Assembly (NCBI GenBank): GCA_009838735.1
Contig: VXQZ01000011.1
Location: forward strand, 17,601-81,600
Source of the DNA: Chloroflexota bacterium
GTDB lineage: Bacteria; Chloroflexota; Dehalococcoidia; Bin125
DNA: 64,000 nt
Direction of reading: 5' to 3'
Notes under the pieces: generated by a model
The model's input: the letters and a program-made list of their open reading frames with translations, nothing else
The model's database searches: none
Told to the model about the DNA's origin: nothing
Program-made: the position numbers and the translations under genes
In this document: one piece after another, positions 24,979 through 51,757 of the stretch
How positions within the stretch are numbered: position 1 is the stretch's first letter
Layout of the letters: each line of letters starts with the position of its first letter

Positions 24979-25869
24979 ATGCCCGACACCGAGACCCTGT
25001 TCCCCGGCTTCCGCGAGCACAGGACGGGCCCAATCTTCGCCCGCGTTGGCGGCTCCGGCTCGCCGCTGTTGCTGCTCCATGGCTATCCGCAGACCGGCGC
25101 CATGTGGCACAAGATTGCGCCCGGACTGGCAGAGCAACACACCGTCGTCGTCGCCGACCTGCTCGGCTACGGCGCCAGCGACTCACCGCCGGGAGACGGC
25201 GGCGGAGAGGCCTACTCGAAGCGGGCCATGGCTGCCCACATGGTCGATCTGATGACCGACCTCGGCTTCGACACCTTCTCGCTCGCCGGGCACGATCGCG
25301 GTGGGCGCGTCTCGTATCGGCTGACCCTGGACCATCCGGAACGGGTCGAACGCCTCTCCCTGCTGGACATCATCCCCACCGCTGAACAGTTTGAGCAGAT
25401 GGGTATCGCCGGCGGCCTGGGCGGATTCCACTGGTACTTCCTCGCCCAGCCCGCGCCCTTGCCCGAGACACTGATCAACGGCGCGCCCGACTTCTTCCTC
25501 AAGCGAATGCTCGGCAGTTGGGCAGGCGAGGACGGCCAGACTGTCTTCACCGAGGCCGCGATGGCCGAGTACCTCGCCGCAGCCAATGACCAGGAAACGG
25601 TTCGCAGCTGGTGCGAGGACTATCGTTCCGGCGCGCGCTTCGACCTGAGCCTCGACAGGGCCGATCGCTCAGAGGGCAAGAAGATCACCTGTCCCCTCTT
25701 CGTGATCTGGGGCGCCGGACGCCAGCCCAGCCGGCGCGGCCGCTTCATGGCCACCTGGCATCGCTGGGCGACCAATGTCACCGGAGTCGGCCTCCCCTGC
25801 GGTCACTTCCTCCCCGAAGAACTTCCCGACGAAACCGAAGCCGCGCTCAAAGACTTCTTCGCCGACTGA
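24979..25869 (+). CDS. haloacetate/fluoroacetate dehalogenase-like alpha/beta hydrolase (epoxide hydrolase family)
   Basis: HGYPQTGAMWHKIAPGLAEQHTVVVADLLGYGASD and nucleophile motif GHDRGG, LDIIPT closely parallel haloacetate dehalogenase H-1/FAc-DEX. Confidence 0.7.
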   Translation: MPDTETLFPGFREHRTGPIFARVGGSGSPLLLLHGYPQTGAMWHKIAPGLAEQHTVVVADLLGYGASDSPPGDGGGEAYSKRAMAAHMVDLMTDLGFDTFSLAGHDRGGRVSYRLTLDHPERVERLSLLDIIPTAEQFEQMGIAGGLGGFHWYFLAQPAPLPETLINGAPDFFLKRMLGSWAGEDGQTVFTEAAMAEYLAAANDQETVRSWCEDYRSGARFDLSLDRADRSEGKKITCPLFVIWGAGRQPSRRGRFMATWHRWATNVTGVGLPCGHFLPEELPDETEAALKDFFAD

Positions 25870-25923
25870 TTGAGCGCTTGTACGCTCACAGCGAACCGAT
25901 CCAGGCCCTGCAAGGAGCAACAA

Positions 25924-26514
25924 ATGGATCCCGTCACGACATTCAGCGGTACCGGGTTGCCGCTTGACCGCGCCGATGTTGACACCGACCAAATCATCCC
26001 GGCCAAGTACTTGAAGCGGATTGAGCGCACGGGTTATGGTCCCTTCGCCTTTGAGGCCTGGGCCAAGGATCCGGACTTCGTCACGAACCAGCCTCAATAC
26101 GAAGGCGCCAGCGTGCTGCTCGCCGGACCGAACTTTGGCTGCGGCTCCTCTCGCGAGCATGCAGTCTGGGCGATCCAGGGGATGGGAGTCAAAGCGGTGA
26201 TCGCGCCCGGCTTCGCCGACATCTTCCGCAACAACTCGGCCAAAATGGGACTGCTCACGATCCAGTTGCCGCAACCGGATGTCGAGGAACTCATGCGCAT
26301 GGTCGAGTCGGAGTCAAACACGCCGATCACGGTCAGCCTCGAAGAGCAGACCGTCACCGCGCCGGGCGGCTGGGTGCGCTCCTTCGATATCGCTCCGTTC
26401 GTCAAGCACTGCCTGCTCAACGGCCTCGACGACATCTCCCTGACGCTGGAGCATGACGACCTGATTTCCGACTACGAGTCGAAGCGACCGACAACGAAAC
26501 CGGTCACTGCCTAG
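25924..26514 (+). CDS. leuD: 3-isopropylmalate dehydratase small subunit
   Basis: LPLDRADVDTDQIIPAKYLKRIERTGYG...GPNFGCGSSREHA aconitase swivel-domain motifs; RBS AGGAGCA before ATG 25924. Confidence 0.85.
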   Translation: MDPVTTFSGTGLPLDRADVDTDQIIPAKYLKRIERTGYGPFAFEAWAKDPDFVTNQPQYEGASVLLAGPNFGCGSSREHAVWAIQGMGVKAVIAPGFADIFRNNSAKMGLLTIQLPQPDVEELMRMVESESNTPITVSLEEQTVTAPGGWVRSFDIAPFVKHCLLNGLDDISLTLEHDDLISDYESKRPTTKPVTA

Positions 26515-26574
26515 GATCAACCCAGGCTCAGGCGCCTCCGACACCGAATCCCAGGACGCCCCGATTCTCCTAGC

Positions 26575-26607
26575 GTCGACGATCTGGCTGAGGACCTGAT
26601 CGTCGAC
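26575..26607 (+). promoter_or_regulatory. inverted repeat GTCGACGATC-N13-GATCGTCGAC downstream of leuD
   Basis: Perfect 10-bp arms; followed by TTGACG hexamer; hairpin or operator. Confidence 0.35.
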
Positions 26608-26680
26608 TTGACGAGAGTCTGCCGCTGGCTCCCTATCCTGTTTCCAATCAAGAACAAGGTCCATTGGACAGAAACTCCAC

Positions 26681-26839
26681 ATGCCCGAGCATCCACGGCC
26701 AACCATCGGCGACACCATCACCAACCTGCGCCGTTCGATCGGCCGGCGTCACGCCATCTATGGGTTCATCAAGAACAACCTGATCAAGTTGCGGAATGTT
26801 GACAACTGCTGCGGCAACTACGGTGATCCGGGCTGTTGA
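26681..26839 (+). CDS. small peptide (52 aa) ending CCGNYGDPGC; paralog of 27040..27201
   Basis: Found by eye (below ORF-track size cutoff): MPEHPRPTIGDTITNLRRSIGRRHAIYGFIKNNLIKLRNVDNCCGNYGDPGC; shares PxP[ST][IF]xD[TA]I[TA]NLR leader and CCGxYGxPGC end with second copy, plus conserved 30-nt 3-prime flank. Confidence 0.55.
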   Translation: MPEHPRPTIGDTITNLRRSIGRRHAIYGFIKNNLIKLRNVDNCCGNYGDPGC

Positions 26840-26869
26840 GTGTCCGGCGAGCGCGCTCGGGCCGAGCGC
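26840..26869 (+). promoter_or_regulatory. conserved GC stem-loop (GCGCTCGG-g-CCGAGCGC) within 30-nt element TGAGTGTCCGGCGAGCGCGCTCGGGCCGAGCGC immediately after peptide 1 stop
   Basis: Near-identical element follows peptide 2 (27202..27231); start codon of His-rich mini-ORF abuts it. Confidence 0.5.
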
Positions 26870-26935
26870 ATGGAGTCAGATGACCATGACCATCACCACG
26901 GCCACGATCATGGCCACGGACATGACCATCACTAG
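26870..26935 (+). CDS. His/Asp-rich mini-ORF (21 aa: MESDDHDHHHGHDHGHGHDHH)
   Basis: ATG directly after stem-loop; 11 His of 21 codons; could equally be non-coding; antisense 60-aa ORF 26876..27058 in track is the mirror image. Confidence 0.3.
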   Translation: MESDDHDHHHGHDHGHGHDHH

Positions 26936-27039
26936 TTCAGTAGTCGGCGCTACTGCGGTGAGTGCTGAAGATTGACCGCGATGAAGGCTCAGAATTCTCA
27001 GACTTCCGCGGTTGAGTAGAAGCGACTGAAAGAGATCCG

Positions 27040-27201
27040 ATGTGTAAGCCCCCGACACCCTCCTTCCGGGACGCGATTGCGAATCTGCGCGCCGATGGTC
27101 GTCAGGGCCTGGGCCTGGTCACCGGCGTGCTCGCCATTTGGTGGAATAGGCTGACGGAGCGACAGACTTGCTGCGGCGACTACGGAGCGCCGGGCTGTTG
27201 A
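27040..27201 (+). CDS. small peptide (53 aa) ending CCGDYGAPGC; paralog of 26681..26839
   Basis: MCKPPTPSFRDAIANLRADGRQGLGLVTGVLAIWWNRLTERQTCCGDYGAPGC; same leader and C-terminal motifs and same 3-prime stem-loop as first copy. Confidence 0.55.
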   Translation: MCKPPTPSFRDAIANLRADGRQGLGLVTGVLAIWWNRLTERQTCCGDYGAPGC

Positions 27202-27231
27202 GTCTCCCCCGAACGCGCTCCGGGTGAGCGC
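27202..27231 (+). promoter_or_regulatory. conserved GC stem-loop (GCGCTC-cgggt-GAGCGC) after peptide 2, 27 nt before leuB RBS/ATG
   Basis: Paralogous to element at 26840..26869. Confidence 0.5.
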
Positions 27232-27258
27232 CCAACCGACGATTAGGAACCGAGACGT

Positions 27259-28353
27259 ATGGCCCATTTCAGGATTGCGCTTCTGCCCGGTGACGGGATT
27301 GGCGGCGAAGTCATCGGGCAGGCGATCCGCGTGCTCGATGCCGTAGGCGGCCGATTCGATCACTCCTTTGAGTACAGCGAAGACCTGGTCGGCGGCGCAT
27401 CGATCGACGCCCATGGAGTCGCCTTGCGCGACGAAACGCTGGAGATGTGCCAGGCCCAGGACGCCGTGCTGTTCGGCGCCGTGGGCGGACCGAAGTGGGA
27501 CGATCCGAAAGCCACGGTCCGGCCGGAACAGGCAATCCTTGGCCTGCGCAAGGGACTCGGGCTGTTCGCGAACATCCGCCCGGTCAAGATGCTGCCGATT
27601 CTCGCCGACGCTACACCGCTCAAGCGGGAAACCGTGGAAGCCGTCGATATGGTCGTGCTGCGCGAACTGACCGGAGGCATCTACTTCGGCGAGCCGCAGC
27701 GCCGCTGGGAAGAAGATGGCCAGCGCAAGGCTGTCGACACACTTGCCTACTCGGAGGAGGAAGTCGAGCGGATTGTTCGCCTCGGGTTTGAGACCGCGCA
27801 AGGCCGCCGCAGGCTGCTGACTTCCGTCGACAAGGCCAACATCCTCGACACATCCCGCATGTGGCGCGAGATTGCCGACGAGGTCGCGAAGGACTACCCG
27901 GACGTCACGCTCGAGCATCGGCTCGTCGACGCCTGCGCGATGGACCTGATCCGGCACCCGTCCTACTTCGACGTGATTGTGACCGAGAACATGTTCGGCG
28001 ACATCCTCACGGATGAGGCATCCATGCTGGCCGGTTCGATGGGCATGTTGCCCTCCGCCTCTCTGGGCGCCTCGGAGGACGGCTCGACGCTGGGTCTCTA
28101 CGAGCCGATTCATGGCACCGCACCCGACATCGCCGGCCAGGGCATCGCCAATCCGATGGCCATGATTCTGAGCGCGGCGCTGATGCTGCGTTACTCGCTG
28201 GGTCTTGAACAGGAAGCAAGCGCCATCGAAGAGGCTGTCTCCAACACGCTCGCTGCTGGCCATCGTTCAGCCGATCTCGCCGCTGAAGGCGAGGAGCCAC
28301 TCGGTACCGAAGCGCTCGGAAATCTGATCACCCAAGCAGTCGCCGGCAGCTGA
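27259..28353 (+). CDS. leuB: 3-isopropylmalate dehydrogenase
   Basis: [19 protein letters not shown] N-terminus, [27 protein letters not shown] active-site motif; 364 aa. Confidence 0.9.
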   Translation: [364 protein letters not shown]

Positions 28354-28402
28354 GATCATCGCTCGCCGAATCCCGCAAGCACACAGTTCGTAGAGTTCGA
28401 CC

Positions 28403-31400
28403 ATGCCCATTCAACGCCTTCTCGTCGCCAACCGTGGTGAAATCGCCGTCCGCATCTTGCGCACCGCTACTGAGCTGGGAATTGTCACCGCCGCAGTGCA
28501 TTCCTCCGACGATGCCGCCTCTGACCACATTCAGCATGCAGAGACGGTCATTGAGCTCTCCGGAATCGGACCCGCAGCCTACCTCGACATAGACCAGATC
28601 GTTGATCGCGCCAAAGAGCACGACTGCGATGCGATCCATCCCGGCTACGGCTTCCTGGCCGAGAACGCCGACTTTGCCCGCGCCTGCGAAGAGGCAGGCA
28701 TCACCTTCGTTGGACCCTCGCCGGCTGCGCTGGCGCTGTTCGGGGACAAGGCGCGCGCACGCACACTGGCCGGCGCGCGCAGCGTCCCCGTCCTCACGGG
28801 TACGGACCACGCGGTCGACCTCGATGGAGCGCGCGCCTTCTTCGAGCAGCTCGACGGCCGGCCGATGGTGATCAAGGCAATCGGAGGCGGTGGCGGACGC
28901 GGGATGAGAGCGATCAGTGAGGCCGCCGAGATTGAGGATGCGTTCGAGCGCTGTACGCGGGAGGCTCAGGCGGCTTTCGGCAATGGCGCATTGTTCGTCG
29001 AGCGGTTTATTCCTCGAGCGCGACACATCGAGGTCCAGATCGTGGGTGACCAGCACGGCCATGTGACACACGTGGGCGAACGAGAATGCACAATTCAGCG
29101 TCGTTATCAAAAGCTGATCGAAATCGCGCCGTCGCCAACGCTCAGCGACAGTCTTCGCGAGCGAATCACGACCGCCGCGGTCGAGTTGGCGGAGGCCGGA
29201 GGCTACTCCAATCTCGGCACATTCGAGTTCCTGGTTGATGCCGATACGGGCGATGACTTCGCCTTCATCGAGGCCAACGCCCGTCTGCAGGTTGAACACA
29301 CCGTGACCGAAGAAGTGGCCGGACTCGACCTGGTCGAGTGCCAGCTGCGGATCGCCGAAGGTGCGACGCTCATCGATCTCGGCATGGAATCGCCGCCGCC
29401 ACTTCGAGGGTTTGCGATTCAGTCGCGGGTCAATCTCGAGCGGATGCGTGAGGACGGCGATGTCCGTCCAGCCGCCGGCGCGCTGCGCACCTTCCGTCCG
29501 CCGGCCGGGCCGGGCGTCCGTGTCGACACGTACGGCTATGCCGGATACGCGGCCAATCCCAACTTTGACTCGTTGATCGCCAAGGTCGTGACCCGACATC
29601 CCAGCAGCGAATTCAAGGACGCCGTGCGCCGGGCGCAACGCGCGCTGGACGAGTTCCAGCTCGAAGGCCCCGATTCGAACATTGGCTTCTTGCGCAACAT
29701 CCTGGGACACCCCGAGTTCGTCGCCGGCGATGTCCACACCCGCTGGATCGACGAGCGAATCGGCGAGTTGGCGGTCACCTCTGACAACGGCGCATCCGCC
29801 GGAGGTCAGTCGGCCTGGGCCGGCGCCCAGGTGGAGAACCAGGTCACCGATCCGCTCGCCGCACTTGACTTTTTCCGCCAGGGCGCCGGCGCCGCATCGC
29901 TCGATGTCAACCGTGGACTTGAGGAAGACCGCGCTGGCTTCCCCGCGCCCGAAATCATCGGCCCGCCGGGCACGGAACCGCTGCGCGCTCCGATCCAGGG
30001 CACGATCATCGAGATTCTTGTCGGCGAGGGCGACTCAGTCGTCGCCGGCCAGGATGTGATCATCATGAATGCGATGAAGATGGAGCACGTGCTCCAGGCA
30101 GACATCGGCGGCATCGCGCAGGAAATCACCGTATCGATCGGCGACATCATCTGGGAAGGCCACCCGCTCGTATTCATCGAGCCGGCCGACGTCGGCCCCG
30201 CTCTGGATGACGGCGCCGGTGAAATCGACCTTGACTACATCCGACCCGACCTGCAGCACAACATCGACCTGCACGAGGCCCTGCTCGACCACAATCGCGA
30301 GGGGCCGGTAGCCAGGCGTCACGCCAAGGGCAAGCGCACCGCCCGCGAGAACATTGCCCAGCTTGTCGAGGGCGGCGCCTGGACTGAGTACATGCCGCTC
30401 GGCGTGGCTGCGCAACGTCGCGTGCGATCGTGGGAAGAGTTGCGCCGTGTTTCACCGGCCGACGGCCTGATCTGCGGGATCGGAACAGTCAACGCCGATT
30501 TGTTTGACAACTCCACGGCCTCGACCGCGATCATCTCCTACGACGAGACCGTTTGGGCCGGGACGCAGGGCCTGCGCGGCCATGAGAAGACCGATCGCAT
30601 GGTCGAGACCGCGCACCGGCTGCTCACGCCGCTGGTATTCATCGCCGAAGGCGCCGGCGGGCGTTCGGGCGACACCGATGCGGCGTACACGCGCGTCGCG
30701 GCCCGCAACGTGCGCACCTTCGAGCGCCTGGCCGAGCTCTCGGGCCGCGTGCCGATGGTCTCGATCACCGCCGGACGCTGCTTTGCCGGTAATGCCTCAA
30801 TGCTGGGTATGTGCGACATCATCGTCGCGACCGAAGGTTCCAACATCGCCATGGGCGGACCCGCAGTCATCGAAGGCGGTGGCCTTGGCCTCTTCCTGCC
30901 AGAGGAACTCGGGCCGATGTCGCAACAGGTACCCAACGGCGTCGTCGACATCTTCGTCAAGGACGAAGATGAAGCGATGGCCGCAGTGAAGAAATACCTC
31001 TCCTACTTCCAGGGCCGGCTCACGGAATGGAGCGCCCCCGATCAACGCCAACTGCGCCACGTGATTCCTGAGAACCGGCTGCGCACCTACGACGTGCGCA
31101 AGGTCATCGACCTGCTGGCTGACCACGACTCGGTGTTGGAACTGCGACCCGAGTTCGGCATCGGCGTCGTGACGGCACTGATTCGCATCGAAGGCCGGTC
31201 GGTCGGCGTGATCGCCAACAACAACATGCACCTCGGCGGCGCGGTCGACAGCGATGGCTCGGACAAGCTGGCCCGCTTCGCCCAGATCTGCGACTGCTGG
31301 AACATCCCTCTCCTCACGCTGGTCGATACGCCGGGCATGATGGTCGGTCCCGAGGTCGAGAAGACGGCCCTGGTCCGCCACTGCCACCGGGTCTTCGTCT

Positions 31401-39268: not shown

Positions 39269-40807
39269 ATGCCACCTATCGTCACTACCAAGTACGGCCG
39301 GCTCCAGGGACAGACCGAGGACGACCTACACGTTTTCCGCGGCATCCCCTTCGCCGCACCGCCGGTCGGCGAACTGCGGTTCCGCGCGCCGCGACCTCCC
39401 GAGCCCTGGGACGGCGTCAAGGAAGCGAACGAGGTCGGGCCCGGCTCAATGCAGACGTTCATGTCCGGGCTCGAGCTGCTCGGCGCCTGGGAGATGCCGG
39501 TCGACGAAGACTGCCTCTCGCTCAATATCTGGACGCCCGGTCTGGACGACGCCAACCGTCCGGTCATGTTCTGGATCCACGGCGGCGGATTCTCCGGCGG
39601 TTCGGGCGCGACGCCGATCTATGACGGGCAGCACCTGGCCCGCCGCGGCGACGTGGTCGTGGTCACGATCAACTACCGACTCGGAGCATTGGGTTACCTC
39701 TACAACCAGGCCCTGACCGACGGCGACGATCCGCAGTCCGGAAACTATGGCATGCGTGACCAGGTCGCGGCGCTGCAGTGGGTGCGCGACCACATCAGCG
39801 AGTTCGGCGGCGACCCCAACAACGTCACGATCTTTGGTGAGTCGGCCGGCGGCATGAGCGTCGGCGTGCTGATGGGCGCTGCCGAAGCGGAGGGACTGTT
39901 TCACCGGGCCATCCCGCAGTCGGGCGCCGGACATCACTCGCTGCCGACCGACATCGCTGAGGAAGTCTGCCGCCGCTATTGCGCCGTCCTTGAGGTCAGT
40001 CCCGACGACGCCGATTCCCTGCGCAGCATTCCGGCGCAGGACATGCTCGACGCGCAAAACGCACTGATGGCCGACCCTGCAACCAATGCGCTGACCGGCC
40101 GATACCTGATGGCCTTCTCGCCGGTCGTCGAAGGCGGATTCCTCGAGACCCTGCCCATCGAGGCCGTCCGCAATGGTCGAAGCAGGGATGTCGATCTGCT
40201 CTGTGGAACGATCGAGGACGAGTGGACACTGCTGGCGGCGCTCCAGGGCGTCAACGAGATGGATGAAGCCAGCGCCAGGGGCGCTCTGACTGTGACGGCG
40301 GGCGACGCCGATGTTGCGAACGATCTCTACGATCACTATCGAGACGCCCGAGCTGCTCGCGGGGACGGTTCGGACCCGCTGACGGTGTACGACTCGGTGA
40401 TGACCGACTACGTCTTCCGCATTCCTTCGGATCGTCTGCTGGACGCGCACAGCGCACTCGAGGGCTCGGGCAAAACGTTTGCCTACATGTTCAACCAGCA
40501 GTCGCCGGCGATGGACGGTCGACTGCGCGCGCCGCATGCGATCGACATTCCGTTCGTCTGGGGCACCGGCGACCAGATGCGACCCTTCATTGGCGACGAT
40601 CCACAAACTGATCAGCTCTCGGGCTTCGCCATGGACGCCTGGATCAGCTTCGCTCGCAGCGGAAATCCAACCACGAACGCGCTCCCCGGCTGGCCTCAGT
40701 ACCGAGCCGACCAGCGCTACACGATGGCCCTCGGCCCCGACGTCAAGACTGTCCGCGAAGACCGAGAGGTTGAGCGGGAGATCTGGAGTTCAGACCTGCT
40801 CGAGTAG
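39269..40807 (+). CDS. carboxylesterase type B (para-nitrobenzyl esterase-like), copy 1
   Basis: GESAGG nucleophile elbow (FGESAGGMSV), EDCLSLNIWTP, 512 aa. Confidence 0.85.
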   Translation: MPPIVTTKYGRLQGQTEDDLHVFRGIPFAAPPVGELRFRAPRPPEPWDGVKEANEVGPGSMQTFMSGLELLGAWEMPVDEDCLSLNIWTPGLDDANRPVMFWIHGGGFSGGSGATPIYDGQHLARRGDVVVVTINYRLGALGYLYNQALTDGDDPQSGNYGMRDQVAALQWVRDHISEFGGDPNNVTIFGESAGGMSVGVLMGAAEAEGLFHRAIPQSGAGHHSLPTDIAEEVCRRYCAVLEVSPDDADSLRSIPAQDMLDAQNALMADPATNALTGRYLMAFSPVVEGGFLETLPIEAVRNGRSRDVDLLCGTIEDEWTLLAALQGVNEMDEASARGALTVTAGDADVANDLYDHYRDARAARGDGSDPLTVYDSVMTDYVFRIPSDRLLDAHSALEGSGKTFAYMFNQQSPAMDGRLRAPHAIDIPFVWGTGDQMRPFIGDDPQTDQLSGFAMDAWISFARSGNPTTNALPGWPQYRADQRYTMALGPDVKTVREDREVEREIWSSDLLE

Positions 40808-40816
40808 GAGCATCTC

Positions 40817-42352
40817 ATGCCCGGGAATCCGACAACCGTCCAGACGCAACGGGGACAACTGCGTGGGCAAGCCGAAGGCGGTGTACACGTGTTCCGCGGT
40901 GTGCCCTACTCGCAGCCGCCGGTGGGCGAACTTCGCTGGCGTCGGCCGCAGCCGCTCGAGCCGTGGGATGGCGTCCGCGATGCTCTGGAGTTCGGGCCGG
41001 TCTCGATCCAGCCGCCCCGTCCGGCGGCCGGGCCATTCGCGGGAATCATGGGACACAGCCAGGAGCGGACCTCGGAAGACTGCCTCTACCTCAACGTCTG
41101 GACGCCCGGGCTCGACGATCGCCGGCGGCCCGTCATGGTCTGGATCCACGGAGGCGGACTGAGCAGCGGATCGGGGTCGTCACCGGCCTACGACGGCGCG
41201 CCGCTTGCCGCTCGTGGCGACGTGGTGATCGCGACGATCAACTACCGCCTGGGAGCGCTTGGCTTCCTACCCGATCCGGTGCTTGCCGACGGGGAAGAGA
41301 CCGAGGGAAACTTCGGTTTCCACGACATGCTCGCCGCGCTCCGCTGGGTTCAAGACGAAATCGCCGGATTCGGCGGAGACCCCTCCAATGTCACGATCTT
41401 CGGCGAGTCGGCGGGCGGCATCGCCGTCGGAATTCTGCTCGCATCGCCGCTTGCAGGAGGCCTCTTTCACCACGCGATCATCCAGAGCGGCGCAGCCGAC
41501 CGGCTCCACTCGCGCGACTCGGTCCGCGAGATGCTGCCCTTCTACTACCGCGAACTCGGGCTCGAGCAACCGTCGGCCGAGGACTTGCGCAGCTTGTCGG
41601 TCGAGGAGATTCTGACTGCACAGACTGTGCTGGCGGCGGCCGACCCGGCGATCAATCCCGCTGCTGGTCTGCATGGGCTGTTCAATGCCGTGATCGAGGA
41701 CGATTTCCTCGACGCCATGCCGATCGACGCTGTGAACGAGGGTCGCGGTGGCAACGTTGATCTGCTCGCCGGGACGATGCGCAATGAGTTCACGTTGCTG
41801 TCGGCCATGTCCGGGCTAGACGACATGAACGAGGAACGGGCACTGGAGTTGTTGGCGCCGCTGGTCGGCGGGAGCGAACGCGCCGGCGAATGCTACGAGA
41901 CATACCAGTTGCTTCGCATCCAGCGCGGAGAGACGACCGACCCCCTGGCGATCTACAACGCGGTGATGACCGATCGCCAGTACCGAGGCTCAACTCGACG
42001 ACTGCTCGATGCGCGGGAGCGCGCCTCGGGTGGCACGTATTCGTATCTGGTGGAACAGCAGTCGCCCATGTTCGAGGGACGACTGGAGTCGCCGCACGCA
42101 CTCGATGTGCCCTTGATCTGGGGAACGAACGAATTGATGCGCGACTTCGTCGGCGACGATCCACAGGTCGACCAGCTCAGCGGCTTCATGATGGACGCCT
42201 GGATCAACTTCGCTCGCAGCGGAAATCCGACCACGAACGCCCTGCCTGGCTGGCCCCAGTACCGAGCCGACCGGCCCTACACGATGGTCTTCGGCCCCGA
42301 TGTGCGAACCGTCACCGAGGAACGAGACGAAGAACTCGCCCTCTGGCGCTGA
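40817..42352 (+). CDS. carboxylesterase type B, copy 2 (tandem paralog)
   Basis: FGESAGGIAV, EDCLYLNVWTP; collinear with copy 1 throughout. Confidence 0.85.
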   Translation: MPGNPTTVQTQRGQLRGQAEGGVHVFRGVPYSQPPVGELRWRRPQPLEPWDGVRDALEFGPVSIQPPRPAAGPFAGIMGHSQERTSEDCLYLNVWTPGLDDRRRPVMVWIHGGGLSSGSGSSPAYDGAPLAARGDVVIATINYRLGALGFLPDPVLADGEETEGNFGFHDMLAALRWVQDEIAGFGGDPSNVTIFGESAGGIAVGILLASPLAGGLFHHAIIQSGAADRLHSRDSVREMLPFYYRELGLEQPSAEDLRSLSVEEILTAQTVLAAADPAINPAAGLHGLFNAVIEDDFLDAMPIDAVNEGRGGNVDLLAGTMRNEFTLLSAMSGLDDMNEERALELLAPLVGGSERAGECYETYQLLRIQRGETTDPLAIYNAVMTDRQYRGSTRRLLDARERASGGTYSYLVEQQSPMFEGRLESPHALDVPLIWGTNELMRDFVGDDPQVDQLSGFMMDAWINFARSGNPTTNALPGWPQYRADRPYTMVFGPDVRTVTEERDEELALWR

Positions 42353-42361
42353 TACTCGTGA

Positions 42362-43762
42362 CTAAAGGCTGCGCACGTCGACGAAGTGGCCGGCGACCGC
42401 GGCGGCGGCGGCCATCGCCGGGCTGACCAGGTGAGTCCGGCCTCCGGGGCCCTGTCGGCCCTCGAAGTTTCGGTTGCTGGTTGAAGCGCAGCGCTCTTGA
42501 GGGCTGAGGATGTCGGGGTTCATACCCAGGCACATCGAGCAGCCTGCGTCCCGCCATTCGAAGCCGGCGTCGCGGAAGATATCCGCGAGACCTTCTTCTT
42601 CGGCCTGCACCTTCACCAGCCCCGAGCCCGGCACGACCATCGCGTTGACGCCGTCTGCGACGTGTCCACCACTGATCGCAGCGGCGGCCGCGCGCAGATC
42701 TTCAATCCGGCCGTTGGTGCAAGAACCGATGAACACGCGGTCGATGGCGATGTCGCTGATTGGCGTGCCGGCGGTCAGGCCCTGGTAGGCCAGTGCCCGC
42801 TCCGCCGACTCTTGCGCCGACGCAGTGGCTAGGCTGGCCGGGTCTGGTATCGAGCCCGTGACCGGCGCACTCTGTGCTGGATTGGTACCCCAGGTGACGA
42901 ATGGCGCAATCTCAGCGCCGTCAATCACCACTTCCTTGTCGAAGTTGGCGTCCTCATCGGTGACCAGTTCACTCCAGCGCTCGACCGCATCGTCCCAGGC
43001 GTCGCCGGTCGGAGCGTGCGGACGCCCCTTGACGTAGCGGATCGTCGTCTCGTCCGGCGCGACCAGTCCGGCGCGGGCGCCGCCTTCGATGGTCATGTTG
43101 CAGACCGTCATCCGGCCGTCCATCGAGAGGTTGCGAATCACGTCGCCGCGGTATTCGATCACGTGCCCGACACCGCCGCCGGTGCCGATCGTGTTGAGGA
43201 TCGTCAGGATCACATCCTTGGCCGAGCAACCATCGGGCAGTTCGCCCGTGACCTCAACCGACATCTGCTTGAGCGGCGCCTGCGGCAATGTCTGCGTCGC
43301 GAGCACGTGCTCGACCTCCGAGGTACCGATGCCGAAGGCCAGTGCACCCAGGGCTCCGTGAGTTGAGGTGTGGCTGTCGCCGCAGACGATCGTCAGGCCG
43401 GGCTGGGTCAGGCCCTGTTCCGGCCCGATGATGTGAACGATCCCCTGGCGCGGGTCGAGCGTGTCGTAGAGCGGCACGCCGAACTCTTCGCAGTTGGCGC
43501 GCAGCGATTCGACCTGCTGTTGCGAGAGTGGGTCGGCATACGGTTCGATCCGCGTGTCGGTCGGGACGTTGTGATCCTGGGTCGCGAGCGTCAAGTCAGG
43601 GCGCCGCACGCTCCGACCGCTCAGCCGGAGACCTTCAAACGCCTGCGGCGACGTGACTTCATGCACGAGGTGCAGGTCGATGTAGAGCAGGTCGGGCTGG
43701 CCCTCCACGCTGCGGATCAGGTGCTCGTCCCAGATTTTCTGAGCAACAGTACGTCCGGCCAT
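42362..43762 (-). CDS. leuC: 3-isopropylmalate dehydratase large subunit
   Basis: Aconitase family; Cys ligand motifs ...GSCTNGR..., N-terminus [15 protein letters not shown]; 466 aa. Confidence 0.9.
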
Positions 43763-43806
43763 GGGTCACTCCTCAGCGGTCGATTCTGCGGTCGGATGTT
43801 TGAGAG

Positions 43807-45360
43807 CTACGGCGTCCGCTCCTGCGTCGCGGCGGCGGTCGCGCCGGTCTGTCCGCTGACGTGACGGTTGATCGCGTTGATGTAAGCCCGAGCCGAGGCG
43901 ACCAGGATGTCCTGGTCTGCGGCCCGGCCGGTGTGCGTGGCGCCATCGATGAGGATGCGAATCGTGACGTCGCCCTGGGCGTCGAGTCCCTCGGTGATGC
44001 TCGTGACGCTGTACTCCTCAAGCTCGTCTTCGACGCCGGTCAGTTCGCGGATCGTCTGGTAGATCGCATCGACCGGACCGGTACCGGTCTTGGCGCCGGA
44101 GCACTCTTCGTCGTCCGGCGATCGCAGCGTGACCGTCGCCGACGGCGTGGCCGTCGTGCCCGCGGAGATGTCGATCGATACGAGCTGCCAGCCTTCGGTC
44201 GGTTGGCCGAGCCGGTCCATGACGATCGCCTCGAGGTCGCGGTCGTCAACCACCGTCTTGCGGTCGGCGAGCTGCTGGAAGCGATCGAACGCCGCCTTCA
44301 ACTCGTCGGCGTCCAGTTCATAGCCCAGGTCCTCCAGTCGCGAGCGGAATCCCGCCCGTCCGGAGAGCTTTGAGAGCACGAACTGCGAGCCCTCGACCCA
44401 GCCGACCTCCTTGGGGTCCATGATCTCGTAGGTCTCGCGCATCTTGACCACGCCGTCCTGGTGAATCCCGGACTGATGGCGGAACGCATTGAGTCCGACG
44501 ATCGCCTTGTTCGGCTGCACGTGCATGCCGGCGAAGTCCTGGACCATGCGCGAGGCCGGGACCAGGTACTGAGGGTCGACGCCGATTTCGACGCCGAGGT
44601 GGTCGGCGCGGGTGCGGATTGCCATCACGGTCTCCTCGAGCGAGGTGTTGCCCGCTCGTTCGCCGAGACCGTTGATCGTGCATTCCACCTGCCGAGCGCC
44701 GGCGCCGACGGCGGCCAGCGAGTTGGCCGTCGAGAGGCCGAGGTCGTTGTGGCAATGCACTGAAACGACGACGTTATCCGCTCCCGGCACATCCTCGAGG
44801 ATGCCGGTGATGAAGCGGGCGAACTCGTCGGGGATGGCGTAGCCGACGGTATCGGGAATATTGATCGTCGTCGCGCCCGCCTCGATCACCTCGCGCAGCA
44901 TGCGGCGGACGAAGTCGACATCCGAGCGGGTCGCGTCCATCGGCGAGAACTCGACGTCGCTGGTGTACTGCTTGGCCCGCGCGACCATTTCGCGGGCCTG
45001 TTGCAGCACCGATTCACGGTCCTTGCGCAGCTGGTGCGCGATATGGATGTCGGAGGAGGAGAGGAAGACGTGGATGCGAGGATTCTCGGCGTCGCGGATC
45101 GCCTCCCAGCCCTGGTCGACATCGTTGGGCACGGCGCGGCAGAGGGTGGCGATCTGTGTCCCGCGGACCTCGCGGGCGATGCGGTTGACGGCGTCGAAGT
45201 CGGCCGGCGAGGCGGCGGCGAAGCCGGCCTCGATGCAGTCGACGCCCATGCGCTCGAGCAGCTTGGCGATCTGCAGCTTCTCCTCGGCGGAGAAGGAGAC
45301 GCCGGCGGCCTGTTCGCCGTCGCGCAGGGTGGTATCAAAGATTCGGACTCGGTCAGCCAT
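43807..45360 (-). CDS. leuA: 2-isopropylmalate synthase
   Basis: MADRVRIFDTTLRDGEQAAGVSF, HCHNDLGLSTANSLAAV, C-terminal LeuA dimerisation/regulatory domain; 517 aa. Confidence 0.9.
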   Translation of the reverse strand: MADRVRIFDTTLRDGEQAAGVSFSAEEKLQIAKLLERMGVDCIEAGFAAASPADFDAVNRIAREVRGTQIATLCRAVPNDVDQGWEAIRDAENPRIHVFLSSSDIHIAHQLRKDRESVLQQAREMVARAKQYTSDVEFSPMDATRSDVDFVRRMLREVIEAGATTINIPDTVGYAIPDEFARFITGILEDVPGADNVVVSVHCHNDLGLSTANSLAAVGAGARQVECTINGLGERAGNTSLEETVMAIRTRADHLGVEIGVDPQYLVPASRMVQDFAGMHVQPNKAIVGLNAFRHQSGIHQDGVVKMRETYEIMDPKEVGWVEGSQFVLSKLSGRAGFRSRLEDLGYELDADELKAAFDRFQQLADRKTVVDDRDLEAIVMDRLGQPTEGWQLVSIDISAGTTATPSATVTLRSPDDEECSGAKTGTGPVDAIYQTIRELTGVEDELEEYSVTSITEGLDAQGDVTIRILIDGATHTGRAADQDILVASARAYINAINRHVSGQTGATAAATQERTP

Positions 45361-45469
45361 AACGGGAAACTCCAGTGGTCAGAGCAGGGATTGAACGGGT
45401 GCGTTGACGTGGCCGCTATTGCTCACCAGCACGATCTGGGAGGCGGCCGCCGATCAGGCCACGAGCACT

Positions 45470-45489
45470 CCGCGGGCAACAGCCCGCGG
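45470..45489 (-). promoter_or_regulatory. 8-bp perfect stem-loop (CCGCGGGC-UGUU-GCCCGCGG) in ~380-nt leuA leader
   Basis: Read from sequence in 5-prime UTR upstream of leuA on minus strand; possible attenuator/riboregulatory element, unverified. Confidence 0.3.
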
Positions 45490-45739
45490 TTCAGCTCCTC
45501 CAAGCACACACTGCTTCATGCTGAGTACTATAGGGGACGCTCGTAGCAGAGGCCTGCCGAGGCGCCAGCATTCGACTTAGCCTCCACACGCTAACTCTCC
45601 ACCGAACTCACATTCCGTCACTCCAGCGCAAGCGGGAATGGCGGATTTCGTTTGACGACGACGGCGATCTGATTTCCTTATCCTCCGAGCAACCGTGGGT
45701 TGCGCGTATGCGCGATGTCTGGATCGCTTGGAGATTCTG

Positions 45740-47470
45740 ATGGCGAAGTTTGATGTTCTGATTCGGGGTGGGACGGTTGTTGATGGGACCAGTGTCCCCC
45801 GGTTTGTCGCCGATGTTGGGATCAAGGACGGTGTGGTTGCCCAGATTGGCGGCAAGATGGACGCCATCGACGCCGAGCAGGTGCTCGACGCCGACGGCCT
45901 GATCGTGGCGCCTGGCTTCGTTGACCTGCACACGCACTACGACGCTCAGATCCAGTGGGATCCGTACTGCACGATTTCCGGCTGGCATGGGGTGACGTCG
46001 GTCGTGCTGGGAAACTGTGGCTTCGGTTTTGCTCCGGTGCGGGTCGAGGAACGCGACCGCGCGATGCTGACCATGTCGCGCACCGAGGCGATTCCGTTTG
46101 ACTCAATGAAGGAAGGGATGATTTGGGACTGGGTCACATTCCCCGAGTTCCTCGACACGCTCGATCGGATCCCCAAGGGCGTCAACTGCCTGTCCTACAT
46201 GCCGCTCGCGCCGCTGATGACCTGGGTCATGGGCCTCGAAGCGGCTAAGTCGCGGCGCGCCAACGATGACGAAATCGCCGAGATGAAGCGTCTGCTCAAC
46301 GAGGCGATGGACGCCGGTGCCTGCGGTTGGTCGACGCAGCGGCTGGGAGAGAATTCGGTCCAGGCCGATTACGACGGCACGCCGATGGTGACCGACATCA
46401 TGTCGGACAGCGAGTGCCTTGCGCTGGCAGAGGTCCTGGCAGAACGCGACGAGGGCTTCATCCAGATCACCCAGTTCACAGGCGACCTGGACAAGGATCT
46501 GGAGTTCCAATCGGAGCTGGCGGCGGCAGCGAAGCGGCCTATCTTGCACAACCTGATCGCCGTCAACCCGAAGAATCCCGACCTGCATCGCAACCGGATG
46601 AAGTGGCTGGAGGAGTGCAACGCCCGCGGCGAGCGGATCTTCGGGCAGGCCGCCACGATCCGCGCCGCCTTCACCTTCACGCTGGAGGACTGGAATCTGT
46701 ACGACTCCTCGCCGGCCTGGAACTACGCCACCACAGGAACGCGTGATGAGCGCAAGGCCAAGATGGCGGATCCTGAAGTGCGGGAGCGAATCATCGCCGA
46801 GATCGATGAGGCAATCAAGAAGCTTGGCCAGACCCAGGCGCTCGGCGGGCCGATCGAGGAACTGTTGATCCAGGATCTGGCTCACCAGGACGAGCTGGAA
46901 GAGTTGGTCGGGATGACGGTGGGCCAAGTCGCTGAGATTCGCGGATATCACCCCGTCCACGCGATGCTCGACCTCGCGCTGGAGACCGACCTGCAGGCGG
47001 AGTTCCTGACGCCGATGCGCGAACAAAACGATGAGTGGACGGCCGAGATGATCACCTCGCCGTACTGCATCCCCGGCGTGTCCGACGGCGGCGCGCACAC
47101 CAAGTTCCTCACGGCCGGTTCATATCCGACCGACTTCCTCATGTGGCTGGTCCGCGACACCGGCCAACTCACATTGGAAGAGGCGCACTACCGGTTGAGC
47201 AATCTGCCCGCCCGCGCGGCCGGATTCCGGGATCGCGGCACGCTGGTCGAAGGCGCGCCGGCCGATGTGGTCGTCTACGACCTCGACGCACTCAACATCA
47301 CGCCGGAGTGGACCGGCGAGATTGTCTACGACTTCCCCGGCGGCGAATGGCGTCGGGTGCAACGACCAGACGGCTACCGCTGGATCCTGGTCAACGGCGA
47401 AGTCACGTTCGAAGACGGAGAATCGACCGGCAGCACACCAGGCAAGTTGCTGCGACACGGTCGCGGCTGA
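45740..47470 (+). CDS. N-acyl-D-amino-acid deacylase (D-aminoacylase) family amidohydrolase, copy 1
   Basis: MAKFDVLIRGGTVVDGT...PGFVDLHTHYD metal-binding HxH; 576 aa; ORF-track GTG 45695 possible alternative. Confidence 0.75.
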   Translation: MAKFDVLIRGGTVVDGTSVPRFVADVGIKDGVVAQIGGKMDAIDAEQVLDADGLIVAPGFVDLHTHYDAQIQWDPYCTISGWHGVTSVVLGNCGFGFAPVRVEERDRAMLTMSRTEAIPFDSMKEGMIWDWVTFPEFLDTLDRIPKGVNCLSYMPLAPLMTWVMGLEAAKSRRANDDEIAEMKRLLNEAMDAGACGWSTQRLGENSVQADYDGTPMVTDIMSDSECLALAEVLAERDEGFIQITQFTGDLDKDLEFQSELAAAAKRPILHNLIAVNPKNPDLHRNRMKWLEECNARGERIFGQAATIRAAFTFTLEDWNLYDSSPAWNYATTGTRDERKAKMADPEVRERIIAEIDEAIKKLGQTQALGGPIEELLIQDLAHQDELEELVGMTVGQVAEIRGYHPVHAMLDLALETDLQAEFLTPMREQNDEWTAEMITSPYCIPGVSDGGAHTKFLTAGSYPTDFLMWLVRDTGQLTLEEAHYRLSNLPARAAGFRDRGTLVEGAPADVVVYDLDALNITPEWTGEIVYDFPGGEWRRVQRPDGYRWILVNGEVTFEDGESTGSTPGKLLRHGRG

Positions 47471-47518
47471 TCGCTCATACTCACCTGAAACGGGAACCAG
47501 CAGCACAAGGAGACTGAG

Positions 47519-49249
47519 ATGGCGAAGTTTGACGTTCTGATTCGCGGCGGCACGGTCGTCGACGGGACCCGTGTCCCACGATTTGTGGCGGACGTCGGGA
47601 TCAAGAATGGGGTCGTCACCCAGATCGGCGGCAAGATGGACCCCGCAGACGCCGATCAACTCCTCGAAGCCGATGGCATGATCGTCGCGCCCGGGTTTGT
47701 CGACCTGCATACGCACTACGACGCGCAAATCCAGTGGGATCCATACTGCACGATCTCAGGCTGGCACGGTGTCACATCAGTGGTGCTCGGCAACTGCGGC
47801 TTCGGCTTCGCGCCGGTGCGTGCAGAGGAGCGCGACCGTGCCATGCTGACCATGTCGCGCACAGAGGCGATTCCCTTCGACTCGATGAAGGAAGGCATGC
47901 TCTGGGACTGGATCTCCTTCCCCGAGTGGCTCGACACCCTCGACCGCATCCCCAAGGGCGTGAACTGCCTCTCGTACATGCCGATCGCCCCGTTGATGAT
48001 CTGGGTGATGGGTCTGGAAGCGGCCAAGAGTCGACGCGCAACCGACGACGAAATCGCCGAGATGCAGCGTCTGCTGCACGAAGCGATGGACGCCGGCGCC
48101 TGCGGCTGGTCGACCCAGCGACTGGGTGAGAACTCGGTCCAGGCCGACTACGACGGCACGCCGATGGTGACCGACATCATGTCGGACAACGAGTGTCTGG
48201 CCCTGGCCGAAGTCCTGCGCGACCGCGACGAAGGCTTCATCCAGATCACCCAGGCGACGGGCGACATCAAGTCCGACCTCGCCTTTGAGGCGAAGCTGGC
48301 CGAGGTCTCGGGACGGCCGATCCTGCACAACGTGATCGCGCCGAGCATGCAGCGGCCGGACGCTCACACCAAGTCGCTCAAGTGGCTGCATGAGTGCAAC
48401 GACCGCGGCGAGCGCATCTTCGGTCAGGCCTTTACGATCCGCTCGGCCTTCGCCTACACGCTTGAGGATTGGAACCTCTACGACTCGTCACCGGCCTGGA
48501 ACTACGCCACGACCGGCACGATCGAAGAGAAGATGTCCAAGTTCGCCGATCCGGATGTGCGGCAGCGGCTTAAGGATGAGATGGACGATGCGATCGAGAA
48601 GCTGGGGCAGACGCAGGCCATCGGCGGCTCGATCGAGCGGGTCATGATCCAGCACCTCGAGGCCAAGCCCGAGCTGGAAGAGTATGTCGGACTGACGCTC
48701 GCCCAGGTCGGCGAGAAGATGGGCAAGCACCCGATCGACGCGATGCTCGACCTCGCGCTGGCCACGGACCTCAAGGCCGAGTTCCTGACCGAGGTGACGA
48801 ACGCCAACGAAGAGCACATGGCCGAGATCATGGAATCGCCATACACGATTCCGGGCGTCTCCGATGGCGGTGCGCACACCAAGTTCCTCACCGCAGGCTC
48901 ATACCCAACCGACTTCCTCATGTGGATGGTGCGCGACACGGGCAAGATCACCCTCGAGGAAGCTCACTACCGGCTCTCCTACTTGCCGGCACGCGCGGGA
49001 GGGTTCACGAACCGTGGCTCATTGGTCGAAGGCGCCCCGGCCGACGTGGTCGTCTACAACCTCGACGAACTGAAGCTCGATCCTGAATTCCAGGGCGAGA
49101 TCGTCTTCGACTTCCCCGGAGGCGAATGGCGCCGAGTCCAGAAGCCGCACGGCTACAAGTGGATCCTCGTCAACGGAGAGGTCACCATGCAGGACGGCCA
49201 GGAAACCGGAGCCACCCCGGGCAAGCTCCTAAGGCACGGTCGGGGATGA
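47519..49249 (+). CDS. N-acyl-D-amino-acid deacylase family amidohydrolase, copy 2 (tandem paralog, ~80% identical)
   Basis: Same motifs; collinear identity with copy 1. Confidence 0.75.
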   Translation: MAKFDVLIRGGTVVDGTRVPRFVADVGIKNGVVTQIGGKMDPADADQLLEADGMIVAPGFVDLHTHYDAQIQWDPYCTISGWHGVTSVVLGNCGFGFAPVRAEERDRAMLTMSRTEAIPFDSMKEGMLWDWISFPEWLDTLDRIPKGVNCLSYMPIAPLMIWVMGLEAAKSRRATDDEIAEMQRLLHEAMDAGACGWSTQRLGENSVQADYDGTPMVTDIMSDNECLALAEVLRDRDEGFIQITQATGDIKSDLAFEAKLAEVSGRPILHNVIAPSMQRPDAHTKSLKWLHECNDRGERIFGQAFTIRSAFAYTLEDWNLYDSSPAWNYATTGTIEEKMSKFADPDVRQRLKDEMDDAIEKLGQTQAIGGSIERVMIQHLEAKPELEEYVGLTLAQVGEKMGKHPIDAMLDLALATDLKAEFLTEVTNANEEHMAEIMESPYTIPGVSDGGAHTKFLTAGSYPTDFLMWMVRDTGKITLEEAHYRLSYLPARAGGFTNRGSLVEGAPADVVVYNLDELKLDPEFQGEIVFDFPGGEWRRVQKPHGYKWILVNGEVTMQDGQETGATPGKLLRHGRG

Positions 49250-49339
49250 TTCAGCTCTAGTCACCCGCTTGGCGTCCCCGGCCCAACAGCCGGGGACGTT
49301 GCGTTTATCGACTCACCGAAGCCGCCGCAGGCGAATCTA

Positions 49340-51655: not shown

Positions 51656-51757
51656 CTCATTCGCCTGTCGCTTCGAATCGAATCGAGGCGCAAGATAGGC
51701 GATCAGGCTCGGCGAAGTGCGTGTCAGGCGCGGCCACGACGGAGTTCAGAATCCGCT

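Follow-up and report, generated by a model that had tools for sequence, protein, structure and literature searches.

What is encoded between leuD and leuB in the genome of a Chloroflexota bacterium (Dehalococcoidia; GenBank assembly GCA_009838735.1)? In the 64,000-nt stretch of contig VXQZ01000011.1 analysed here (the window), these two genes are separated by two short open reading frames (ORFs), each ending in a Cys-rich motif and a TGA codon and each followed by a stem-loop. An earlier note on this DNA took the ORFs for complete peptides accompanied by a separate His-rich mini-ORF, and considered that they might be precursors of ribosomally synthesised and post-translationally modified peptides (RiPPs) or a leader system controlling leuB. 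Comparison with related loci leads us to a different answer: the region very probably consists of two tandem paralogous small selenoprotein genes, with selenocysteine (Sec) inserted at the TGA that follows ...PGC. Coordinates are positions in the window, and the selenoprotein genes and their features lie on its plus strand.

Two reading frames continue past TGA

The region is bounded by leuD, encoding the small subunit of 3-isopropylmalate dehydratase (196 aa; 25924–26514, plus strand), and leuB, encoding 3-isopropylmalate dehydrogenase (364 aa; 27259–28353, plus strand). Pfam matches on syntenic contigs (Aconitase_C and LeuD for the former, Iso_dh for the latter) bear out this placement. Read up to the TGA, the two ORFs span 26681–26839 (52 aa) and 27040–27201 (53 aa). 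They are indeed paralogous, as had been proposed, with 37% identity and a pairwise E of 1e-9, and they share the motifs PxPS..D.I.NLR and CCGxYGxPGC, the latter directly before the TGA.

The His-rich ORF (26840–26935) begins right after the first TGA (26837–26839) and is in the same frame as the first peptide. It is thus not the separate 21-aa mini-ORF of the earlier note but the C-terminal tail of a longer reading frame broken solely by TGA. In our gene model, selenoprotein gene 1 extends from 26681 to 26935 and encodes 84 aa with Sec predicted at codon 53 and a TAG stop (MPEHPRPTIGDTITNLRR...NCCGNYGDPGC-U-VSGERARAERMESDDHDHHHGHDHGHGHDHH); its acidic His-rich tail (MESDDHDHHH..., 26870–26932) is in frame 0 relative to the upstream ORF. 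Selenoprotein gene 2 extends from 27040 to 27246 and encodes 68 aa with Sec predicted at codon 54 (TGA at 27199–27201), again with a TAG stop (MCKPPTPSFRDAIANLR...TCCGDYGAPGC-U-VSPERAPGERPTDD); this model is based on the ORF list, on orthologues and on the substitution pattern in the tail described below. The predicted proteins share one layout, in which an N-terminal PxPS...NLR motif is followed by a predicted long basic helix and by the centre CCGxxGxPGC-U.

The UGA is invariant and aligns with cysteine in homologues

We retrieved 66 genome loci (from Dehalococcoidia, Tepidiformaceae, Dormibacterota and other Chloroflexota) and 80 metagenome loci, across which the arrangement of TGA plus hairpin recurs far above chance. 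The earlier note had proposed a search for homologues; in those retrieved here the Cys spacing is conserved and, in Dehalococcoidia, the genes co-localise with leuD and leuB. The codon following the ...PGC motif is TGA in 123 of 123 genes from the genome loci and in 79 of 79 from the metagenome loci, and TGA also stands at the end of the motif in Acidimicrobiales loci and in further distant loci. The true stops that end the extended frame are distributed quite differently: among 109 unique genes, 78 are TAG, 17 TGA and 14 TAA. With stops being mostly TAG and few TGA, TGA is not the preferred terminator of these genomes. Criteria for a selenoprotein gene include an in-frame UGA conserved among orthologues, Cys homologues that align with the UGA and are conserved on both of its sides, and a suitable hairpin downstream; the first is what we observe here, for both genes of the window.

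The second was found as well. Fourteen proteins in six clusters carry Cys at the position of the UGA (PGC-C) and continue for 12–24 further residues; codon TGC occupies the position in P0031, P0023, P0076 and P0087. The Cys-form P0031 aligns with a UGA-form without gaps through the UGA (E 3e-20), with Cys facing UGA and the pattern VT.E.AI.EGWL conserved downstream of it. Its gene starts 12 nt past leuD in the order ilvB-ilvN-ilvC-leuA-leuC-leuD-P0031-(APH-family gene)-leuB and, lying between leuD and leuB, has the same genomic position as the UGA-forms. The remaining Cys-forms include members from sponge Acidimicrobiia. Cys-forms make up roughly 5% of the family proteins, so that Sec-forms dominate; the usual pattern in selenoprotein families is the opposite, with Cys-forms outnumbering Sec-forms.

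A residue other than Sec or Cys was seen at this position in one partial protein only, P0171 from Deltaproteobacteria bacterium RBG_13_53_10 (...PGC-S-QGEEKS), where the Ser could be a genuine variant or a sequencing error, TCA for TGA. The Cys-form operon (locus L079) also contains, between ilvN and ilvC, a 51-aa ORF (982–1137) that is hydrophobic, rich in Ala, Val and Gly, and not a member of the family. A scan of the window for further TGA-interrupted genes gave output too noisy to use.

The simplest alternative takes TGA as a true stop: the products would be the 52- and 53-aa peptides, the hairpin a terminator or an element for processing or stability, and the His-rich ORF a separate mini-gene. 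This is how the proteins are annotated by gene callers and in all source databases, and since Sec insertion in bacteria is inefficient, some truncated product is to be expected anyway. Against a true stop stand the invariance of TGA in more than 200 genes although their true stops are mostly TAG, and the Cys homologues that run on through the position. Together with the properties of the hairpin and the tail given below, these observations make termination at the TGA very unlikely.

The downstream hairpin fits a bacterial SECIS element

Both hairpins in the window begin 13 nt past the TGA. The first (26853–26869) has the sequence GCGCUCG-GGC-CGAGCGC, with a 7-bp stem, the loop GGC 20 nt past the UGA and a folding energy (dG) of −12.2 kcal/mol; the second (27215–27231), GCGCUC-CGGGU-GAGCGC, has a 6-bp stem, the loop CGGGU 19 nt past the UGA and a dG of −9.9 kcal/mol. 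The latter lies 27 nt upstream of the leuB ATG at 27259. The GC stem-loops had already been pointed out in the earlier note, and across genomes they prove to be a conserved structured RNA. In the published model of the bacterial selenocysteine insertion sequence (bSECIS; PMC13188914), the apical loop has 3–9 nt with a G in its first two positions, the stem has 4–16 bp, the distance from UGA to loop is 16–37 nt, and dG is at most −7.5 kcal/mol. Both window hairpins fit this model, which is the third of the criteria named above. When the test was applied strictly, admitting perfect stems only, the model was passed by 95 of 107 unique family sites versus 363 of 3000 random TGA triplets from the same loci (12%). 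The spacing from UGA to loop is 19–20 nt in 78 of the 95 passing sites.

The comparative evidence points the same way. In a gap-free alignment of 58 Dehalococcoidia sequences anchored at the TGA, 95% of the cells are paired, against 23–53% in slid controls. Covariation of this element, likewise suggested for examination earlier, is seen as compensatory changes in 3 of the 7 pairs (G-C/A-U at 17–33 and A-U/G-C/C-G at 23–27). Between clades the position of the hairpin is kept and its sequence is replaced, as in GCCAUCC-AGGAG-GGAUGGC, CCGUCCG-GUG-CGGACGG, GGCC-CGUGC-GGCC and CCGCCC-CGUGA-GGGCGG. From this fit and conservation, we assign the downstream stem-loop as a predicted bacterial SECIS element. 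A scan of 25800–27400 gave 0 terminator-like (U-tract) sites and 0 promoter-like sites; the missing U-tract after the hairpin is a further point against termination at the TGA.

Two Cys-forms differ as to the hairpin. In the Chloroflexota Cys-form (L079, 6163–6200) the TGC codon is still followed by a SECIS-like hairpin, GCCAUCC-GGGAG-GGAUGGC, a sign that the switch from Sec to Cys may be recent, and in an Acidimicrobiia Cys-form (L081, 6157–6210) the hairpin is lost.

The tail behaves as coding sequence

Past the TGA, 107 of 109 unique genes have at least 13 open codons in frame 0, and the other two frames are often closed within 10 codons. We calculated the ratio of nonsynonymous to synonymous differences (pN/pS) by the Nei-Gojobori method in four orthologue groups. 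It is 0.21–0.49 in the tail (0.49 in the group of gene 1 and 0.40 in that of gene 2), 0.17–0.48 in the 25 codons before the TGA, and 0.32–0.52 in the codons past the hairpin. The constraint on the peptides, which the earlier note had left to be determined, is thus real, with values before the TGA that are not near 1, and the tails are under purifying selection as well and appear to be translated.

The His-rich runs lead to the same view. Of 22 sequences with such runs past the TGA, 20 have them in frame 0 and ahead of the true stop; at least six separate lineages are represented, among them the clade of the window, L047/48, L050/51, Acidimicrobiales L087, L105, L162 and L168. Selection on the tail and the frame of these tracts both argue against a true stop at the TGA, as do orthologues lacking an internal ATG (for example those with ...ERIQEDDR tails), which could start no separate ORF. 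Tail length varies in the family: many members have only 1–4 codons after Sec, the hairpin then being in the 3′ untranslated region (UTR), and the window proteins have tails of 14 to 31 residues.

Points against selenocysteine decoding

Several observations weigh against the reading of these genes as selenoprotein genes. Neither the 64-kb window nor about 1 Mb of related loci yielded selA, selB, selC or selD. ARAGORN detected no tRNA-Sec in the window and 60 loci, Pfam annotation of the window from about 2.3 to 59 kb (via contigs encoding matching proteins) revealed no genes of the Sec machinery, and tblastn with E. coli SelD and SelA gave no match in the window and related loci. Because only 64 kb of the genome was searched, their absence from this DNA says little. 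As to the hairpins, single-sequence folding is unexceptional in DNA of 64% G+C, with z of −0.35 and +0.36 for 46-nt segments and about −1.7 for the 23-nt hairpin cores, and copy 2 has an alternative fold that is marginally more stable than the conserved hairpin. Not being unusually stable singly, the hairpins make their case by comparison and not by folding energy. Covariation is modest within the Dehalococcoidia hairpin because its core is nearly invariant; this core also encodes a conserved E-R-A..E-R, which entangles RNA and protein constraints. Finally, as regards biochemical function, an AlphaFold2 model of the 52-aa part has low confidence (pLDDT 61.5), with one long helix at residues 9–42 and an unstructured Cys-rich end, and similarity to the Protein Data Bank (PDB) is marginal.

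On the machinery, published surveys speak in favour of the selenoprotein reading. According to Slaby et al. (2017), most sponge-symbiont bins contain SelA together with SelB, and their Table S4 lists SelA=1 and SelB=1 for the related sponge Chloroflexi bin125. Locus L023 (MPNM01000004.1), with three family genes between leuD and leuB, comes from that bin. The BSepDB paper (2026) describes Dehalococcoidia metagenome-assembled genomes (MAGs) with 46–49 selenoprotein genes.

Position before leuB and possible translational coupling

The family gene has leuB immediately downstream in 52 of the 66 genome loci and leuD upstream in 42 of the 66, and more distant lineages show the order leuC-leuD-X-leuB, X being the family gene. 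The true stop of the last copy lies 2–13 nt upstream of the leuB ATG in 29 of 38 distinct junctions. The distance from stop to ATG is 12 nt in 20 distinct junction sequences, of which nearly all contain TAGGAA, and 2–6 nt in other lineages. In the window, TAGGAA (27244–27249), in which the true stop of gene 2 overlaps a Shine-Dalgarno-like AGGA, is 12 nt upstream of the leuB ATG. Such packing of stop and start is typical of translationally coupled genes and is further evidence that ribosomes reach this stop. Translation of leuB may thus be coupled to completion of the selenoprotein.

These junctions are also what would favour an explanation in which the small ORFs act mainly in cis, as leaders controlling leuB, possibly through selenium-dependent read-through to a stop overlapping the leuB ribosome-binding site, with the peptide being secondary. 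The stop 2–13 nt before leuB, often as TAGGAA, and the position of the family gene directly upstream of leuB in most genome loci would suit it. The strong conservation of the peptide itself (pN/pS 0.17–0.48) would not, nor would a family of at least 1,778 clusters with many members outside the leu context. Neither a run of Leu codons nor an alternative terminator/antiterminator fold is present, and of two or three tandem copies only the last abuts leuB. We consider a primarily regulatory role distinctly unlikely. As to the leader system proposed in the earlier note, a classical leader peptide or attenuator is not supported, there being no terminator-like site and no run of Leu codons, and translational coupling is possible in view of the stop beside the leuB start.

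Copy number and further genomic context

Between leuD and leuB there are one to three family copies per genome. A third paralogue type (MCEERPE...CCGRYGDPGC-U-TGPPDAQDERPTDE), not present in the window, lies between copies 1 and 2 in many genomes; it was seen in L001 (6373–6574), L016, L022–L028, L037 and L054, and its hairpin variant is ACGCUCA-GGA-UGAGCGU. In L030 (5567–5612), one copy of the third type carries about 17 C in a row straight after the TGA, which lengthens the hairpin spacing to 28 nt and changes the frame of the tail; an assembly error in the homopolymer or decay of the copy is the probable cause. Closely related contigs L076 (9295–9936), L001 (5296–5937) and L005 contain a Uma2-family (PF05685) gene between leuD and gene 1. 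It is not present in the window (26515–26680), L074 or L075, a presence/absence polymorphism at the leuD/gene 1 junction.

Genes for leuC (Aconitase, 466 aa) and leuA (HMGL-like/LeuA_dimer, 517 aa) are found about 15 kb away at 42362–45360 on the minus strand. With these two distant and on the opposite strand, this genome has its leu genes in two separate places; L079 and L047 have leuA and leuC contiguous with leuD-X-leuB. ARAGORN predicts a tRNA-Ser(gga) at 27409–27487 (plus strand) inside the leuB coding sequence, repeated in the identical region of L008, which is almost certainly a false positive. Elsewhere in the window, tandem pairs of COesterase, Amidohydro_3 and sulfatase (about 770 aa) genes occupy about 39269–54085, and several Bac_luciferase-family genes are spread over it; these calls were taken from a contig encoding a protein identical to one of the window.

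Outside the Dehalococcoidia the context differs. In Dormibacterota the neighbours resemble branched-chain aminotransferase, HisA and YajQ by sequence motifs only, without a Pfam check, and in Acidimicrobiales and one further lineage the family gene is solitary. The family gene adjoins a DUF523 (2-thiouracil desulfurase)-DUF1722 gene in 14 metagenome loci, which represent at least three sublineages (L115, L118, L131, L145, L156, L169, L104 and L135; L094, L108, L119, L125, L142 and L159). Eight of the 14 (L115, L118, L131, L145, L156, L169, L104 and L135) have a gene for a membrane methyltransferase resembling PEMT/ICMT a median of 17 nt downstream. Five DUF523-DUF1722 loci have a nearby gene resembling photolyase, without a Pfam check.

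This methyltransferase gene, 17 nt downstream in one distant subclade, is a point in favour of a RiPP pathway, in which the peptides would be precursors with a leader and a Cys-rich core tailored by enzymes encoded elsewhere. The leader-like layout, the short Cys-rich core and the tandem paralogous copies recall such precursors, and a Sec-containing precursor would also be possible, since there are known examples of ribosomal peptides with Sec (Selenobacteriocin, TIGR04081). Pfam annotation of 10 kb to either side, in the window and the syntenic loci, agrees with the observation of the earlier note that no modifying enzyme lies within 10 kb: there are no radical SAM, YcaO, LanB/C or peptidase/exporter genes within about 10 kb. 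The conserved neighbours are instead housekeeping leu genes, leuD and leuB, throughout a class. Conservation spans the entire protein including the tail, and the family is chromosomal and vertically conserved, without the patchiness of biosynthetic gene clusters. The proposed pair of RiPP precursors is for these reasons highly improbable, and selenoprotein genes remain the reading that we adopt.

A widespread and apparently undescribed family

Close homologues in Chloroflexota MAGs came to light in word-indexed searches. Profile searches gave 86 clusters among 1.84 billion representatives, almost all terminating exactly at ...PGC, and at least 1,778 clusters among 5.8 billion proteins, each named one of the latter being called "hypothetical protein". 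The family ranges over Chloroflexota, Dormibacterota, Acidimicrobiia and other groups. No family model in Pfam or NCBIfam (June 2026 release) matches the truncated or full-length proteins: in an hmmscan of 17 representatives (U written as C, E ≤ 10), the sole hits were weak low-complexity matches of His tracts to ZrgA and RcnA. Nor is there a match to curated CU-motif selenoprotein families such as SaoC (NF040734), KCU-star (NF033934) and MbdU (NF045648). A May 2026 review tabulates 119 families, with few exceptions under identifiers from Pfam, NCBIfam or another InterPro-type resource, and we found no counterpart there. An Rfam scan of 25500–28500 (E ≤ 10) gave nothing relevant. The motif strings, and the combination of selenoprotein and isopropylmalate, were not found in the searchable literature. 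The earlier note had not recognised the motif from any described family, and no curated family claims it. The recoding mechanism seems to be the standard bacterial one, and the protein family undescribed.

If this is true, at least 1,778 clusters over several phyla, including those of abundant marine and sponge-associated Dehalococcoidia, are systematically mis-annotated as hypothetical proteins of about 50 aa, and the prokaryotic selenoproteome gains a family. The succession of a short ORF, TGA, a hairpin and an in-frame mini-ORF would then be a pattern to screen for in genome annotation.

Proposed mechanism and function

Where a ribosome has paused at UGA, a bacterial SECIS brings in SelB-GTP-Sec-tRNA(Sec). 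In the mechanism that we propose, the TGA after ...PGC in each gene would be decoded as selenocysteine in this way, and translation would proceed through the hairpin into a short acidic tail, which in protein 1 would be the His-rich segment formerly drawn as a separate mini-ORF. The centre CCGxxGxPGC-U would then comprise two vicinal chalcogen pairs. In the leu operon of Dehalococcoidia, the true stop abutting the leuB start may couple leuB translation to these events.

The invariant features of the family are C-C-G-x-x-[G/D]-x-P-G-C-[U/C]. In addition, 44 of 117 listed family proteins start with Met-Cys, and many lineages have His-rich tracts, either N-terminal or in the tail. Given the four S/Se ligands, the frequent N-terminal Met-Cys and the His-rich tracts at either end, our best inference is that the CC...CU centre of the protein either serves to bind a soft metal or metalloid or is redox-active as a thiol/selenol through selenenylsulfide cycling. 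As far as sequence features can tell, metal binding by Cys and His is a reasonable guess. The preference for Sec over Cys suggests that selenium is essential to the chemistry of the family, and the compact CC-x7-CU motif is testable for metal binding or redox activity.

The neighbouring genes allow a more specific and rather unlikely proposal. Isopropylmalate isomerase and TudS/DUF523 contain solvent-exposed [4Fe-4S] clusters held by three Cys, and the isomerase is a main target of copper toxicity. As the selenoprotein gene lies inside the leuCD-leuB operon in Dehalococcoidia and beside DUF523-DUF1722 in unrelated lineages, its product might guard or service enzymes with such a cluster, either sequestering Cu(I) or other soft metals or reducing or repairing the cluster. 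Linked to this, Sec read-through might gate leuB translation by way of the overlap of stop and start. The placement between leuD and leuB in any case provides a handle on the role of a small selenoprotein in a housekeeping pathway and on Sec gating of downstream translation.

Comparison with known systems

In their gene organisation, the window genes resemble E. coli fdhF-type genes with a SECIS in the coding region (families in PMC13188914): both have an in-frame UGA, Cys homologues and conservation on both sides, and the G-containing apical loop of the window hairpins, 19–20 nt downstream, is inside the bSECIS model. Unlike the known bacterial selenoprotein families, the present one has no Pfam or NCBIfam match, and its Sec-forms far outnumber its Cys-forms.

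The protein itself recalls sites for As(III), Hg(II) and Cu(I) in other proteins. Its NCC-x(n)-C pattern on a flexible C-terminus is like that of A. ferrooxidans ArsR (Cys95/96/102, PDB 6J05) and the C-terminal Cys-Cys of MerA, and its His-rich tracts are like those of metal chaperones and transporters. A PDB sequence search gave a marginal match to the ArsR C-terminus in 6J05 (E 0.04) that derives in part from the crystallisation His-tag. The family lacks the DNA-binding domain of ArsR, and no ars, mer or cop genes are nearby. The As(III) site of ArsR has the arrangement NCC...C, and we regard the likeness to ArsR and MerA as resemblance, not membership, the 6J05 match being only a lead.

Thioredoxin reductase ends in Gly-Cys-Sec-Gly. 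This enzyme, KCU-star/DUF466 (NF033934), SaoC with its Cys-Cys-COOH end (NF040734) and UXX-star have no homology to the present family by hmmscan (E ≤ 10), and the family has no flavoprotein domain; it differs further in having a second vicinal Cys-Cys 7 residues upstream and, in the window proteins, tails of 14–31 residues. It is like them in the adjacent Cys-Sec after Gly, and like the 'star' families in having the SECIS in the 3′ UTR where only 1–4 residues follow Sec. By this analogy, it probably shares with these C-terminal-Sec proteins a chemistry of selenenylsulfide formation or metal ligation.

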